IMG/VR virus record: IMGVR_UViG_3300045391_000819
Location: 1-64,000 of that record
Length of the DNA: 64,000 nt
Strand: one strand, 5' to 3'
Origin: a virus
Position 1 is the first letter of the stretch, and every line of letters begins with the position of its first letter. The notes beneath the pieces were generated by a model, which saw only the letters and a list, made by a program, of their open reading frames with translations, was not told the DNA's origin and made no database searches. Made by a program: the position numbers and the translations under genes. Positions 3,355 through 37,535 of the stretch are shown here, one piece after another.

Positions 3355-4082
3355 GTCGTCACTGTAAAGCTCCAATGTGAGCAAGGGACGGCCAAACTAC
3401 CTAGTTTTTTACGTTGCCTTGTGTGACGTTTCTAAAGGTAGTAGGATGTCTAACTATGGTGCATTTTTTGCGGTCTTTTGACCAGTTGCCATACTTAGGC
3501 CATAAAGTAGAGGCGAAAATACAGCCTGCCTGCAATGTATTGCAGATTAACGACTACTAAGGGTAAAACCTTAATGTAGCGTAGGGTATAAGATTACGAT
3601 TTTATACTTACAGTAGGACTCTTTAAGTAGGGAGCAGGCCGAATATTGCCCATAAATACCCAAAGGTGGTAGTTTTAGACAGTAGGAAATGACTGTAGTC
3701 CATTTAAATGCGACATAACGGCCTAAGTCTCAATGAGATAAGGTATGGACATGCCACAAGCGAAAGCGAACGGGTTGCATATGCGAAAGCATTCGTAAAA
3801 GAGAGCGCAGATTGAACTCTTTATGCAGTGGGGTTACGACCATGCCAACAGGCCAAGAAAGGACTGGCAATCTATTCTTGAGCTTACAAGGGGACTGTGG
3901 ACACTAGTCAGCCACAAAAGTCTATCCGTTGGTAGAGTGCATTGATTATCAGGTCAATAGCAGCCGTAATGGTGTAGCTACTGGTAACGTGACACTAAGG
4001 ACAAGTGAGGGATATATACATTTGATTATAGCCTGCGAAAGTAGGGAAGGGTGTCTTGACTCTAGTCGAGATGCCCTTTTTT
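3355..4082 (+). ncRNA. candidate large structured non-coding RNA (about 730 nt)
   Basis: No credible ORF; many hairpins with GAAA/UACG loops and G-U pairs; bounded by promoter and terminator. Confidence 0.55.
4047..4082 (+). terminator. intrinsic terminator
   Basis: 14-bp stem AAGGGTGTCTTGAC/GTCGAGATGCCCTT with 3 G-U pairs, 4-nt loop, U tract. Confidence 0.8.
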
Positions 4083-15729: not shown

Positions 15730-16325
15730 TATAGGTGAGTAGATTTATACGTGACGAAAATGTAGTGGACGTGCAAATCCGTCCGAAAGGATAAAGTCGG
15801 CTGAACTTTAATTTGATTGACAAAGAATAATATAGTTAATCCGAAGTTAATGGACGTAAATACGACCTCTCCAAACGGCGTAGTCCTGAGCGGTAATGCA
15901 GTTTTGAAATGCTGATGAAGCATTTAGATTAGCTAATCCGTTATATAGATTAAATACCTCTTATTCCGCACATGCTACACGCAGAAGCCTATCAAGTTGG
16001 GTCATGCAAGAGACTTTCTACATACAGTACTCATAGGGCAAAATCGCCATGTTCTACATGGAATACGGGGAATAGTCCTGCCCTGCCACCTGCCAAATTT
16101 AATTTATTCAACATATATCCTTGGAGTTATGTCGTGTGTCGTAAGGGTGGAAACAGTGACCCTTACTGGGTTTCGTAAACCCGATACTTTGAGGCAACAA
16201 AGGAAGGGTGGTTCAATTGTAAGCACAGTTTTACTGTTTGGGTTATGTACGTACAATACATAACGAGCCTTACTCTGGGAACGTGCATAATGTTTGCATC
16301 GAGGTTCGACACCATCGCACCCTTT
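15730..16325 (+). ncRNA. candidate structured intergenic RNA
   Basis: About 600 nt with only conflicting short ORFs; perfect stems GTAAGGGT/ACCCTTAC, GGGTTT/AAACCC, GTTATGTA/TACATAAC. Confidence 0.4.
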
Positions 16326-33734: not shown

Positions 33735-34438
33735 ATGATTCAATTAATACGAAGAAACTGAATCCAGATTGGTTTCATAAAATCTTTGCTGAACGTAGAA
33801 GGGTTGATGGTAAACCTACTGAATATGAAACAGTTAAGGCTAAATCGAGAATGCGTGGAATTTTGGAATATAAGAATGCTATTCAGGACTATCTTTTGAG
33901 TAATGAGGATAAACTTAGTAATCATATCAATCCTACTGTATCTTTTGCCCGTAGAGAAATGATTAGTGAAATGATAGATATTCTGTATAACATTAGTCCT
34001 AATAAACCTGTAAAGATTGATAATCAATTTACACGTCTAACGGATGAATTTGCAGACGGTAATAGGGTAATTTTGATTTATCAAAGATGCGATTGGAATA
34101 ATACTCCAGAACCCGGATGGTATGACAATTATGGGGTTAAGAAATATACTTCTATTCATACCAGTGATTACCATAAGAATATGGATGCCTTAATGCCTGT
34201 GGTTAAATGTGTTAAAGCGGATATTATAATTGCTCAAAGGGAAGCTGAGTTTGATGATAACTATGTCATGCAAAGAAACTATCAGTTCCTTAATGTTTTG
34301 GATTTGTGGGCAGATACAGTATTGGCAATCAAAGGATTAAAGGGTGCGAAACTTGCGCCTGCTTTTGTAGAAAAACCTACATCAAAATTATATTTGTCTT
34401 ATGCAGAATTACAGGAAAGAGCAAAGGCAAATAGATAA
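33731..34438 (+). CDS. hypothetical protein
   Basis: 235 aa. Confidence 0.75.
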   Translation: MNDSINTKKLNPDWFHKIFAERRRVDGKPTEYETVKAKSRMRGILEYKNAIQDYLLSNEDKLSNHINPTVSFARREMISEMIDILYNISPNKPVKIDNQFTRLTDEFADGNRVILIYQRCDWNNTPEPGWYDNYGVKKYTSIHTSDYHKNMDALMPVVKCVKADIIIAQREAEFDDNYVMQRNYQFLNVLDLWADTVLAIKGLKGAKLAPAFVEKPTSKLYLSYAELQERAKANR

Positions 34439-34451
34439 TTTGGATGGCAGC
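34432..34451 (+). promoter_or_regulatory. copy 6 of 20-bp motif
   Basis: TAGATAATTTGGATGGCAGC. Confidence 0.5.
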
Positions 34452-34480
34452 GAAAATAAAAAATAAGTACATTCTATCAT

Positions 34481-34669
34481 ATGAGTATTCAAGAACAAGA
34501 GTTTGAACAATTAAAAACAGCTCTATTAGAAGAAGAAAGACTTGATGACTTCCATGTTGGGTGTCATCCATATCTGTTTAATGAACACGTTTCTTTGCAG
34601 TTTTGCGGATGGGAAATAGTCTTATTACCAGACGGTAAGTATTTTATAAATGATACGACAGGAGGTTAA
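34481..34669 (+). CDS. hypothetical protein
   Basis: 62-aa ORF after motif copy 6. Confidence 0.6.
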   Translation: MSIQEQEFEQLKTALLEEERLDDFHVGCHPYLFNEHVSLQFCGWEIVLLPDGKYFINDTTGG

Positions 34670-35057
34670 AATGAGAGTACGATTAAAAATTAAAGACGGT
34701 AAAATACTGGAAGGTAAAGACCAATTGGGTGCGCTCATCCATTCGCTTGATGGTGAGTATATATTTTCAGCTCTTGATCTTAGTTCACCTAATACGGTTG
34801 AGGAGTGGCGTAAACTCTATTTTGCATTGAGGGATGTGTTACATGAAGCTGTAGAGACTGGTTATACCAAAAAAGAGTTACACGATGTAATCAAAAAGAA
34901 ACTTATTTATGATATGATGATGCAAACTACTGTTCGTTTAACAGATTGGTTTACTGATGCTGAATACTCAACTAAGGCACTCACAGAAGCAGGATGGGTA
35001 GAATATATGAAACGATTCAGAGAATTTGCAATGGACACATTTGAAATCTATTTATAG
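34650..35057 (+). CDS. NinB/Orf-like recombination accessory protein
   Basis: GYTKKELH...STKAL....W.EYM..F..FA pattern. Confidence 0.5.
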   Translation: MIRQEVKMRVRLKIKDGKILEGKDQLGALIHSLDGEYIFSALDLSSPNTVEEWRKLYFALRDVLHEAVETGYTKKELHDVIKKKLIYDMMMQTTVRLTDWFTDAEYSTKALTEAGWVEYMKRFREFAMDTFEIYL

Positions 35058-35132
35058 GACTTACGCAGTCAGAGGTGCGGCTCTTATGTGAAAGCATAAG
35101 GTCAAGCGTCGGTTCGAACCCGACTAAGCCCA
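35057..35132 (+). ncRNA. tRNA-like element lacking a canonical anticodon loop
   Basis: Perfect T arm GTCGG-TTCGAAC-CCGAC, 6/7-bp acceptor stem, D-like arm with GG; third arm closed by GAAA. Confidence 0.65.
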
Positions 35133-35146
35133 CTAAAATTTATAAT

Positions 35147-35578
35147 ATGAGAGGTTATCATGTTCTAAATCTATTAAGAGACATATACTTATTGCCTCTT
35201 CTGTTTGTTCGCAGATTGCTGAACTTTCTGTTGAGTGATTTGGCTGATACATTCTATTACAGGAAATCTGATATTAAAAGGCAGCCGTTTGTATTTGCAT
35301 CTCTCGGTTGGCTATTCGTCTACATAGGGTTATGTATGCTAAGTCCCATCTCTTTGCTCTTTACAAGCATTGATTGGGACTTAAGTTTTTTTACATTGAG
35401 TCTTATGTATGGAATTATATTTTGGGTGTTTGTTTTGATGATTGGTATTGATGTTGGAATATGCTTTCTGAAAAGATTAACAAAAAGGATTTGGAAATAT
35501 GTAAAATCTGTCTTAGGTTTGCAGTCTGAACAAGAGACAGATGACTACAATAAATCAGCCAAAATATGTCGTTTATGA
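35147..35578 (+). CDS. membrane protein (start moved to MRGYHVL)
   Basis: Several hydrophobic helices; track start lies inside the tRNA-like element. Confidence 0.65.
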   Translation: MRGYHVLNLLRDIYLLPLLFVRRLLNFLLSDLADTFYYRKSDIKRQPFVFASLGWLFVYIGLCMLSPISLLFTSIDWDLSFFTLSLMYGIIFWVFVLMIGIDVGICFLKRLTKRIWKYVKSVLGLQSEQETDDYNKSAKICRL

Positions 35579-37535
35579 CCTCGAAACTTTAAAACACTTA
35601 TCGACTGGCTGCTTCTATGATCTCACAACTAAGAAGAAAAAAGAGTTCGTAATATACGATGACCCTGAACAGTTAAAAGCCTTTCTTCTATTTCTCAAAG
35701 CTCTTAATAAGAATGATTATATCCTTGTAGGATTTAATAATCTTGGATTCGATAGCCAGATTCTTGAATATATGATAGGGGAAAGTGAGAAGTGGTTAGT
35801 GTGTGGATTCGATGCACAAACCATTGTCTCTCTTATCCATGAGAAAGCACAGCATATAATTTCTCTACAGAATAGTACTGAAAAGTTTCTACATCTGGTT
35901 CCAGAGTGGAAAATGACTATCCCTCAGATAGACTTATTCAGACAAAAGCATTACGATGGTAAGGCAAAGCAAGGAACGTCTCTGAAATGGATTCAGTTCA
36001 CAATGCGTTATCCTACTGTTGAGGAAATGCCAATCCATCATGAGGATGATATATCTAAAGAGGACATTCCAAACATATTAAAGTATAACTGGAATGACGT
36101 AGATTCTACGGCAACATTCTTTGAAAAGAATAAATTTGAGACAGAGATACGTCACTACCTAAGTGAAAAGTATAATGTAAATCTCATAAATGCTTCAGAG
36201 CCAAGAATTGCCAAGCTATTGTTTGGTAAGTTCCTGAGTGATGAAATGGATATATCCTTCAACGATCTGAAGCAGATGCGTACCTTTAGAAAGACAGTAG
36301 CTCTAAAGGATATAGTATTACCTTACACTAAATTCCAAACTCCTGAATTAAATGCGGTACTTGATGCTGTTAATCAGGCAGTTGTAAATCCTAATTTAAA
36401 TGCGAAAGAGAATACCAAATTTGATATTAATTTTGATTTCGGTGGTATTGATACTTATGTTGGTTTGGGTGGCATTCATGGATGTTGTAGTTCGGGAGTC
36501 TATGAAAACACGAGCAATAATATTATTCATGATATTGATGTCGTATCTTATTATCCTAATTTGGCGATACAAAATGGACTCAGACCAAGACACTTAGGAG
36601 AAGCTTTCAATAGGGTCTATAAGATGATATTTGATGAACGTCAAAAAATTCCTAAATCTGATCCTGTTAACTATGTCTACAAAATTATTCTTAATTCCAC
36701 CTACGGATTATCCAAAGAAATCAACTCGTATCTATACGACCCTTTGTTTACTTATAGTATTACAATTAATGGCCAACTTAGTCTCCTCATGTTGATTGAG
36801 AAGTTGGTATTAGAAGTACCTGACATTAAAATATATCAGGAGAATACTGATGGTGTGACCCTAGGATATGACCCACAATATAAACCTCTTGTGAGTAAGA
36901 TATGTGACTGGTGGTGTCAGCTAACAAAGTTAGAGCTTGAACACGGCTTCTATAAGAAACTGATAATCAGAGATGTAAATAATTATATAGGTGTAAAGGA
37001 TGACTTTGATTGGGACGAATATCAAACATATGTTAAGAAAGGTGAAAGAAAGAAATATTCTAAAATTAAGCACAAAGGAGCATTCGAGTTGGAAATTGAT
37101 TTTCATAAGAATCCTTCTAACCTTATTGTTCCTCTAGCAGCAGAAGCCTACCTTGTAGGAGGTAAGGATTACAGAGAGTTTATTTTTGAGCATGACGATA
37201 TATATGATTTCTTGGCTGGTGTGAAAAAGAAATCAGATTTTAATCTTGTATTACATACATTAAACGATGGAAAATATTCTCAGGAAAATTTACCGAAGGT
37301 CACTCGCTATTATGTATCAAAAAACGGTGGACATTTGCGTAAAGAATTTCATTCAGGTAAAAAGGCTGGAGGTAATGTGGGTGTGAATGTTGAGTGGAAA
37401 ATAACGCCATTAAATGTTGTAAAAGAAACAAGAGCGAGTCGTTATCCACAATTAAATCACACATTCTATATAAAGGAAACCGAAAAATTAATATTTAGCA
37501 TTGAAAATGATGCTAATCAATTAAAATTGTTTTAA
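35541..37535 (+). CDS. family B DNA polymerase (crAss-like type)
   Basis: Exo YDLET, FNN..FD; pol DVVSYYPNL, KIILNSTYG, NTDGV, RDVNNY. Confidence 0.92.
   Translation: MTTINQPKYVVYDLETLKHLSTGCFYDLTTKKKKEFVIYDDPEQLKAFLLFLKALNKNDYILVGFNNLGFDSQILEYMIGESEKWLVCGFDAQTIVSLIHEKAQHIISLQNSTEKFLHLVPEWKMTIPQIDLFRQKHYDGKAKQGTSLKWIQFTMRYPTVEEMPIHHEDDISKEDIPNILKYNWNDVDSTATFFEKNKFETEIRHYLSEKYNVNLINASEPRIAKLLFGKFLSDEMDISFNDLKQMRTFRKTVALKDIVLPYTKFQTPELNAVLDAVNQAVVNPNLNAKENTKFDINFDFGGIDTYVGLGGIHGCCSSGVYENTSNNIIHDIDVVSYYPNLAIQNGLRPRHLGEAFNRVYKMIFDERQKIPKSDPVNYVYKIILNSTYGLSKEINSYLYDPLFTYSITINGQLSLLMLIEKLVLEVPDIKIYQENTDGVTLGYDPQYKPLVSKICDWWCQLTKLELEHGFYKKLIIRDVNNYIGVKDDFDWDEYQTYVKKGERKKYSKIKHKGAFELEIDFHKNPSNLIVPLAAEAYLVGGKDYREFIFEHDDIYDFLAGVKKKSDFNLVLHTLNDGKYSQENLPKVTRYYVSKNGGHLRKEFHSGKKAGGNVGVNVEWKITPLNVVKETRASRYPQLNHTFYIKETEKLIFSIENDANQLKLF

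Follow-up and report, generated by a model that had tools for sequence, protein, structure and literature searches.

A probably tRNA-derived, non-decoding element of unusual architecture in front of a phage DNA polymerase gene

Why would a phage carry, at the stop codon of one gene and a few nucleotides before the start of the next, a tRNA-shaped sequence with no 7-nt anticodon loop, when its ordinary tRNA genes lie elsewhere? This question is raised by an uncultured phage represented by a complete 131,721-bp IMG/VR genome with direct terminal repeats and a G+C content of 36.5%; the window analyzed here is the first 64 kb of that genome. Default ARAGORN called 25 tRNA genes in the genome, with three more at the 90% threshold (25-28 in total), and all ordinary tRNAs called by this program, including Phe-GAA and Met-CAT, are clustered at 122-131.5 kb on the minus strand. 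In the 64-kb window, default ARAGORN called no tRNA gene and no Rfam family was detected at its gathering score. By use of an unconstrained fold, alignment to the Rfam tRNA model, and relaxed ARAGORN, a tRNA-shaped element of 76 nt and 54% G+C was located at positions 35057-35132 on the plus strand. As a separate observation on the tRNA cluster (122300-131540, minus strand), both Ile-GAT and Ile-TAT are present, several marginal members, among them Tyr-GTA (70 nt) and Ser-TGA (connector of 1 nt), are called only at the relaxed threshold, and the default-called Met-CAT has a 6-bp anticodon stem.

The unconstrained minimum-free-energy fold of the element is a cloverleaf of 25 pairs with an energy of -23.4 kcal/mol. 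Its acceptor stem consists of GGACTTA (35057-35063) paired with TAAGCCC (35125-35131), i.e., 7 bp with an A3-C70 mismatch, and the discriminator, A35132, is followed by CTA, with CCA not encoded. The D-like arm (35064-35079), formed by CGCA (35064-35067), an 8-nt loop GTCAGAGG, and TGCG (35076-35079), directly abuts the acceptor stem with no linker in the predicted fold, and its loop has kept a GG that, as modeled, could contact the T loop. The anticodon arm is replaced by a long arm (35080-35107) made of a 3-bp stem, GCT (35080-35082) with AGC (35105-35107), a 4-nt bulge, GTCA, and a 7-bp helix, CTTATGT (35083-35089) with GCATAAG (35094-35100), capped by GAAA (35090-35093). Because the three extra GCT/AGC pairs form, the four-way junction is left without an unpaired base. 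The GAAA-capped 7-bp helix is the thermodynamically preferred shape of this third arm; in the alternative register used by ARAGORN, the arm is a 5-bp stem with an 8-nt loop, GTGAAAGC. The T arm (35108-35124) is canonical in both the fold and the Rfam alignment, with GTCGG (35108-35112), the loop TTCGAAC, and CCGAC (35120-35124), and the acceptor and T stems stack to 12 bp below a canonical T loop.

The original prediction, made from the sequence, had placed every stem where the sequence and the unconstrained fold put it. It was also right that the element starts at the stop codon of the upstream gene, G35057 being the final base of the TAG (35055-35057) that ends the open reading frame (ORF) at 34650-35057, that no CCA is encoded, and that the DNA polymerase gene begins about 400 nt farther on, the distance being 409 nt. 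Its claim that the element lacks an 8-9 linker holds in the predicted fold, where the linker is 0 nt, but not in the register called by ARAGORN at 90%, where a 1-nt linker is present.

When examined as a canonical tRNA (RF00005), the element scored 16.3 bits, below the gathering threshold of 29 bits. Default ARAGORN missed it; a call was obtained only at the 90% threshold, as tRNA-?(gaaa). In that call the connector has 1 nt, the D stem contains one mismatch, and the anticodon loop and the variable region each measure 8 nt. Where a decoding tRNA has a 7-nt loop on a 5-bp stem, the 18-nt arm of the element gives either an 8-nt loop on 5 bp or GAAA on 7 bp, and where a tRNA has two connecting bases, U8-N9, and a core in which U8-A14 can form, the element has a linker of 0 or 1 nt (C). 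Present are a 7-bp acceptor, mismatched only at 3-70 (A-C), on a T stem of 5 bp, a T loop conforming to TTCRANY, and GG in the D loop. The results bear out the earlier claim of a tRNA-like RNA that cannot decode normally, as well as the claim that its arm cannot give a 7-nt loop, since that loop has 8 nt, or 4 nt if closed.

The relaxed ARAGORN call, with U33 and a purine after the anticodon, would also fit a working tRNA whose 8-nt anticodon loop (GAAA) reads the four-base codon UUUC with +1 frameshifting, and quadruplet decoding by tRNAs with 8-nt loops is documented (PMC9094753). However, because G32-C39 and U33-G38 can pair, the ends of that loop come together and the predicted fold closes it to GAAA. 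The 8-9 connector and the core tertiary positions are moreover absent, the Rfam score is 16.3 bits, and no known aminoacylation identity set was recognized, A3-C70 not being the G3-U70 pair. We consider a quadruplet-decoding tRNA very unlikely.

Could the resemblance to a tRNA be accidental, or could the stretch be coding? The fold energy is unremarkable for the base composition (z = -1.56), the Rfam match has an E value of only 0.9 in the local all-family search (approximately 0.09 when rescaled to the tRNA model alone over the 131.7-kb genome), and an open frame starting with GTG (35075-35578) does traverse the element. Against a chance or coding origin, however, the tRNA model aligns with the element from end to end (model positions 1-71), with high posterior probability over the acceptor and the perfect T arm; the D and anticodon arms are skipped in this alignment, and the long-arm segment could not be aligned to the tRNA model by cmscan. 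The G+C content of the element places it in the top 0.3% of 76-nt windows, and the G+C peak (35055-35135) coincides with the ends of the element, as is the case for the true tRNA genes; the element also occupies an intergenic gap of 89 nt. As for coding, a homologue of the downstream protein in the related locus L086 aligns from residue 8, so that the ATG at 35147, not the GTG at 35075, is the start that fits. Chance or coding is thus very unlikely, and the tRNA-shaped feature is real: it is tRNA-derived and non-decoding, with an unusual architecture.

Several other identities were considered and rejected. A tRNA-like domain of a transfer-messenger RNA (tmRNA) was dismissed since ARAGORN -m found none over the whole genome, position 3-70 is A-C, and 76 nt is too short for a tag frame. 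No family match to YrlA/Y RNA (RF02553) was obtained, and TROVE and RtcB are absent from the 131.7-kb genome. An attP site carrying part of a host tRNA was rejected as well, as no tyrosine or serine recombinase was found in the genome and the T arm plus acceptor strand had no exact match in 185,579 species genomes (GTDB).

The element fills the 89-nt intergenic gap between the TAG of the upstream ORF and the ATG at 35147, the two flanking ORFs being on the same strand. The upstream gene (34650-35057, plus strand) codes for a 135-aa protein of unknown function. Of nine near-relative loci tested, eight have this gene conserved; in the exception, L086, the only match to the genes of the locus is the membrane-protein gene. 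The downstream gene (35147-35578, plus strand) starts 14 nt after the element and codes for a predicted hydrophobic/membrane protein of 143 aa, whose L086 homologue (40% identity, N termini matching) lies directly before the polymerase gene. It is followed by the gene for the 664-aa DNA polymerase (35541-37535, plus strand), assigned by phrog_1252 (E = 3.7e-149) and by tblastn matches to phage DNA polymerases. Genes around the element are tightly packed, with overlapping starts and stops. On the plus strand, no terminator-like site was found between 34361 and 36500, and promoter-like sites around the element were not more common than in shuffled sequences. Elsewhere in the window, about 600 nt between ORFs (15730-16325, plus strand) holds no convincing ORF and no Rfam family; its last 131 nt fold strongly (z = -3.2) and end in a T-arm-like hairpin with a 7-bp closing helix and a U run.

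Copies of the element were sought at several levels. Against the INPHARED phages, megablast and blastn with 34000-36500 gave no match. A search for related loci with the polymerase alone confirmed none, and a search with an alignment of 30 polymerase sequences yielded 80 IMG/VR loci (38-50% polymerase identity), in none of which the polymerase gene is preceded by a tRNA or tRNA-like element. The polymerase family is large in metagenomes, with its nearest members only 57-61% identical, and twelve nearer loci (52-61% polymerase identity) were obtained by exact-protein look-up; the element was found in none of them, and a tRNA only in the lineage of L082/83/84. A covariance model built from the element matched only itself in 732 kb, and exact or degenerate patterns (hairpin plus T loop; T arm plus acceptor strand) revealed no copy in IMG/VR, the GTDB genomes, or the JGI metagenomes. 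Hence the conserved GNRA cap with covarying stems that the original prediction had proposed to seek in relatives did not materialize, as none of the 80 and 12 loci and none of the pattern scans supplied a relative carrying the element. The element is a single sequence, known from one metagenomic genome, so that any selection on its fold would be conjectural.

Synteny among the near relatives indicates that the interval from the 135-aa gene to the polymerase gene is a variable slot. It holds the element and the membrane-protein gene in this phage; a DUF4884 gene, 640 nt of non-coding DNA, a tRNA-Met gene, and three small genes in L082; and NUDIX, NAMPT, and GIY-YIG endonuclease genes in L087. 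The L082 tRNA is a 72-bit tRNA-Met(CAU), encoded approximately 1 kb before a polymerase gene of about 60% identity and on the same strand, and it shares with the element the acceptor strand GGACTT and the 3' end AAG-CC-AC.

A number of further features were seen around the polymerase genes of these relatives. The 640-nt non-coding stretch directly upstream of the L082 tRNA-Met (L082:3304-3946) has no Rfam match at E values up to 10 and contains a T-arm/acceptor-like piece at about 3466-3489. The surroundings of the polymerase gene form a cargo hot spot (L087:952-4200; L086:9312-10001; L090:3253-3828; L268:1087-1755), where NUDIX and NAMPT/NAPRTase genes as well as several genes for GIY-YIG homing endonucleases occur, depending on the relative. 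Directly after the polymerase gene of L267 (L267:2161-3791; 56% polymerase identity) are genes for an RNA ligase (PF09414) and a metallophosphatase, possibly an RNA-repair pair, and small proteins (79-89 aa) carrying the C-terminal domain of IF3 (PF00707) are encoded next to the polymerase gene in L090 (7327-7566) and L268 (3734-4003).

To which tRNA does the element trace back? When IMG/VR was scanned with a degenerate pattern composed of the T loop and the acceptor 3' strand, 31 loci emerged, of which some 20 are phage tRNA-Met(CAT) genes with the acceptor type of the element. In this type, which phage tRNA-Met(CAU) genes typically have, GG[A/G]CTT[A/T] pairs with [T/A]AAG[T/C]CC and AC comes next; examples are L135 (GGACTTA/TAAGTCC) and L132 (GGGCTTA/TAAGCCC). 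The element shares its 5' acceptor strand with L135 and L139 and its 3' strand with L132, so a single transition separates the A3-C70 mismatch from either. The acceptor type and the shared slot, which are the only basis of the assignment, make it likely from sequence comparison that the ancestor was a tRNA-Met-type gene once located in the slot before the polymerase gene. Whole-sequence similarity of the element to any tRNA did not exceed the background among unrelated tRNAs, and the T arm is uninformative on ancestry because it is common to many tRNA identities, its 18-mer occurring in more than 119 phage tRNAs of more than 20 anticodon types. Like the phage tRNA-Met(CAU) genes, the element has a 7-bp acceptor of that same sequence type, a discriminator A followed by C, a 5-bp T stem, the loop TTCGAAC, and the D-loop GG; unlike them, it lacks the U8/A9 connector, its D arm abuts the acceptor, it has a GAAA-capped helix or an 8-nt loop, and it carries 3-4 extra bases before the T stem.

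Other lines of descent were tried and abandoned. In a first alignment, the phage's own tRNA-Ser(TGA) was favored as a paralogue, with scores that fall within the background among unrelated tRNAs. The idea that the element arose from a class II tRNA, its hairpin being the variable arm, was prompted by GTGAAAGC variable arms in pattern-scan matches; it was set aside given the 3-bp stub and bulge between the hairpin and the T arm, and no class II relative scored above background. Reading CATAA in the 3' strand of the hairpin as the relic of a CAU loop was equally dropped, as it is indistinguishable from the complementary CTCTTAT (Lys-CUU-like) in the 5' strand. Two other sequences from these scans, L112 (minus strand, ~2247-2324) and L130:167-243, are tRNA-shaped with the acceptor type of the element and an irregular body, and the former received no ARAGORN call even at the 90% threshold.

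If the element descends from a tRNA gene, it may be an inert relic, that is, a redundant tRNA gene of the phage that a few indels and substitutions have inactivated but that is still to be deleted, with any cutting by RNase P and RNase Z incidental. Consistent with this view, the element was found only once, none of the sampled relatives having it, it sits in a slot that turns over quickly between relatives, the phage already owns 25-28 tRNAs, among them both Phe-GAA and Met-CAT, and approximately five events would restore a canonical tRNA, at the 8-9 connector (one base), in the D stem (one pair), in the anticodon loop (one base), just before the T stem (3-4 bases), and at the 3-70 pair. On the other hand, the helices are intact except for one pair, and the effect of the changes is to create pairs, not to disrupt them. 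In addition, dead DNA should vanish quickly because the genome around the element is so tightly packed.

The outcome of random decay was simulated with 162 canonical phage tRNAs, each given 5 or 8 random events, for a total of 16,200 mutants. A cloverleaf without an unpaired junction base arose in 0.4-0.65% of the mutants, and such a cloverleaf with at least 25 pairs arose in 0.2-0.4%; this junction-less criterion was chosen after the structure had been seen, and the simulation argues only mildly against plain decay. The original statement that the element is not simply decaying therefore stands in part: simulated decay rarely yields such a cloverleaf, but with a post hoc criterion the case against decay is a mild one. 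A related outcome concerns the situation that the same prediction had named as fatal to it, a normal tRNA at this place in relatives and random decay in this copy. Half of it was found, as one lineage does carry a normal tRNA-Met(CAU) of like acceptor type in the slot. Taken alone, an inert relic strikes us as rather unlikely, yet it is nearly as likely as the processing signal discussed below.

RNase P, RNase Z, the CCA-adding enzyme, and T-loop-modifying enzymes recognize the acceptor/T stack, the T loop, and the D-loop GG, and this is the half of a tRNA that the element has kept. We tentatively favor, at somewhat less than even chances, the reading that the element is an RNA that derives from a tRNA and cannot decode, in which the half recognized by RNase P and RNase Z is intact and which serves at most as a transcript punctuation signal. 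An RNase P/Z processing signal had been among the functions proposed at the outset; the part of that proposal that stands is a reasonable mechanism, because the acceptor/T-arm half used by RNase P, RNase Z, and the CCA-adding enzyme is intact, and as a model it remains qualified.

According to this processing model, a phage tRNA gene with an acceptor of the Met(CAU) type, residing in the variable slot before the polymerase gene, would have lost its decoding features, i.e., the U8/A9 connector, the canonical core, and the anticodon loop, the latter zipped into a GAAA-capped helix, and would have retained the 12-bp acceptor/T-arm stack, the canonical T loop, and the D-loop GG. The element is most likely transcribed within the plus-strand replication operon. 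Host RNase P would cut at G35057 and RNase Z or exonucleases would act after A35132, presumably followed by CCA addition. Excision would sever the message of the 135-aa gene from that of the membrane protein and polymerase and would yield a stable 76-nt non-decoding RNA. Several points count against this model: the element is a lone sequence, its fold energy is not exceptional, and the upstream stop codon would lose its final base if RNase P cut at G35057, which is awkward unless cleavage is partial or serves to silence the message of the 135-aa gene. With the element a singleton, its function and any benefit to the phage are read here from fold and context and should be taken as a model.

Are there other phage tRNA genes without an anticodon arm of the usual kind? 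The best non-self match of the covariance model of the element (30.6 bits, with GCAA aligned to GAAA) is L138:1825-1902 on the minus strand of IMG/VR 3300021426_000070, a 129-kb phage unrelated by its polymerase to the phage studied here. This is a tRNA gene (43.2 bits, Rfam tRNA) with an unalignable anticodon arm, in which 22 nt replace the 17-nt arm, and ARAGORN calls it only when relaxed. At exactly the corresponding place, L115:11513-11587 (minus strand) is a canonical tRNA-Met(CAT). The flanks of the two loci are about 99% identical over 330 nt on each side, whereas some 55 bases in the interior are different, compensated T-stem changes among them; the acceptor ends are the same, and the D loop and T arm differ. 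Because the flanks are nearly identical while so many interior bases differ, the anticodon-less allele has replaced a normal tRNA-Met by recombination, and since it stands in place of the L115 tRNA-Met(CAT), such alleles do circulate among phages.

The L138 gene resembles the element in its acceptor type, in an identical T loop and T-stem 3' strand, in 33 of 35 bases from the T stem to the trailer, and in a GNRA-capped hairpin within the 22-nt unalignable segment at the place of the anticodon arm. It differs in that it keeps a canonical connector and D arm and is located in a tRNA cluster. We do not claim homology between the two, because the margin of the match over ordinary tRNAs is small, and homology is unproven because the common parts occur widely among tRNAs. 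Other irregular tRNA genes were noted in passing. L138:2139-2227 and L115:11824-11912 (both minus strand) are identical 89-nt genes called tRNA-???(atag), with an expanded anticodon region and 44.4 bits with Rfam tRNA, and L221 and L259 (IMG/VR 3300020185_002311 and a sibling) have a tRNA gene with an anticodon-loop insertion, leaving about 27 nt between the stem strands, that receives no default ARAGORN call.

An RNA of this shape might also act in trans. As a tRNA mimic, a processed, CCA-tailed product would bind a protein that recognizes the tRNA elbow or acceptor, for example a host tRNA-targeting defense nuclease or a tRNA-modifying enzyme, and serve as a decoy, inhibitor, or cofactor. 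The elbow (T loop and D-loop GG) and acceptor are indeed kept with the cleavable anticodon loop closed, an anticodon-less allele has taken the place of a canonical tRNA-Met(CAT) in the unrelated 129-kb phage, and the relative L267 encodes an RNA ligase and a metallophosphatase beside its polymerase gene. Defenses that target tRNAs, and the tRNA countermeasures of phages, are well documented (PMC10264068; PMC11464382, PMC11555353), but the countermeasures known are tRNAs competent in decoding rather than decoys. Moreover, the element is present once, inside an operon and with no evident promoter of its own, an arrangement ill suited to a decoy that must act stoichiometrically; it is not accompanied by a partner gene; genes for Ro60, RtcB, a CCA-adding enzyme, and an RNA ligase are all absent from the phage; and homology to the L138 allele beyond common tRNA parts is not demonstrable. 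The specific decoys named in the original prediction, for anticodon nucleases or sensors of uncharged tRNA, found no backing, as an open anticodon loop is lacking and no known set of aminoacylation identity elements was recognized. We judge a trans-acting mimic of any kind, a decoy included, improbable.

A broader and more speculative variant of this idea, improbable to a slightly greater degree, is that phages carry tRNA shells, often of the Met(CAU) acceptor type, in which the decoding arm is closed, scrambled, or exchanged. These would be an undescribed class of RNA, spread by allelic replacement as in L115/L138 and kept since the CCA-tailed RNA acts on tRNA-recognizing host factors, e.g., defense nucleases.

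If the element is functional, it would be a bacterial-virus counterpart of the tRNA-like punctuation marks of organelles and MALAT1 or, alternatively, one of the tRNA look-alikes lacking an anticodon that possibly serve phages against tRNA-directed immunity; in both cases, it would stand for a class of phage RNA genes hidden from standard tRNA finders. If a relic, it is an example, and an ordinary one, of a stray phage tRNA gene dying in a fast-changing slot.

Three kinds of known RNA invite comparison. In bacteria, a tRNA-like Y RNA with a 7-bp acceptor stem is cleaved by RNase P and then receives CCA (PMC4201824). The YrlA/Y RNAs (RF02553) are bacterial and phage non-coding RNAs with T-arm and D-arm mimicry, as in our element; the latter differs from them in having no RF02553 match and no Ro-binding helix, and neither Ro60 nor RtcB is encoded by the phage. 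Phages T4 (species 1 and 2) and T5 possess tRNA-like stable RNAs in their tRNA clusters, and calls of pseudo tRNAs also occur in phage genomes. The T4 and T5 RNAs are, like the element, phage encoded, tRNA shaped, and non-decoding, and they are processed by the tRNA maturation machinery; they are larger and lie inside tRNA clusters, in contrast to the element, which is isolated in the replication module approximately 87 kb from the cluster of its phage. Third, the mascRNA element of MALAT1, reportedly described by Wilusz et al. in 2008, is said to be a tRNA-like signal for RNase P and RNase Z cleavage. The t-elements of plant mitochondria likewise act as RNase P/Z signals at mRNA ends (PMC1920247). 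These signals are eukaryotic or organellar with demonstrated cleavage, whereas the element belongs to a virus of a bacterial host, its cleavage is proposed from fold and position, and it is not conserved. The likeness lies in the architecture: t-elements and mascRNA are non-decoding tRNA-like folds within longer transcripts at the ends of genes or transcripts, and the element has just such a fold and position, beginning at a stop codon (35055-35057) and ending 14 nt before the next start (35147).
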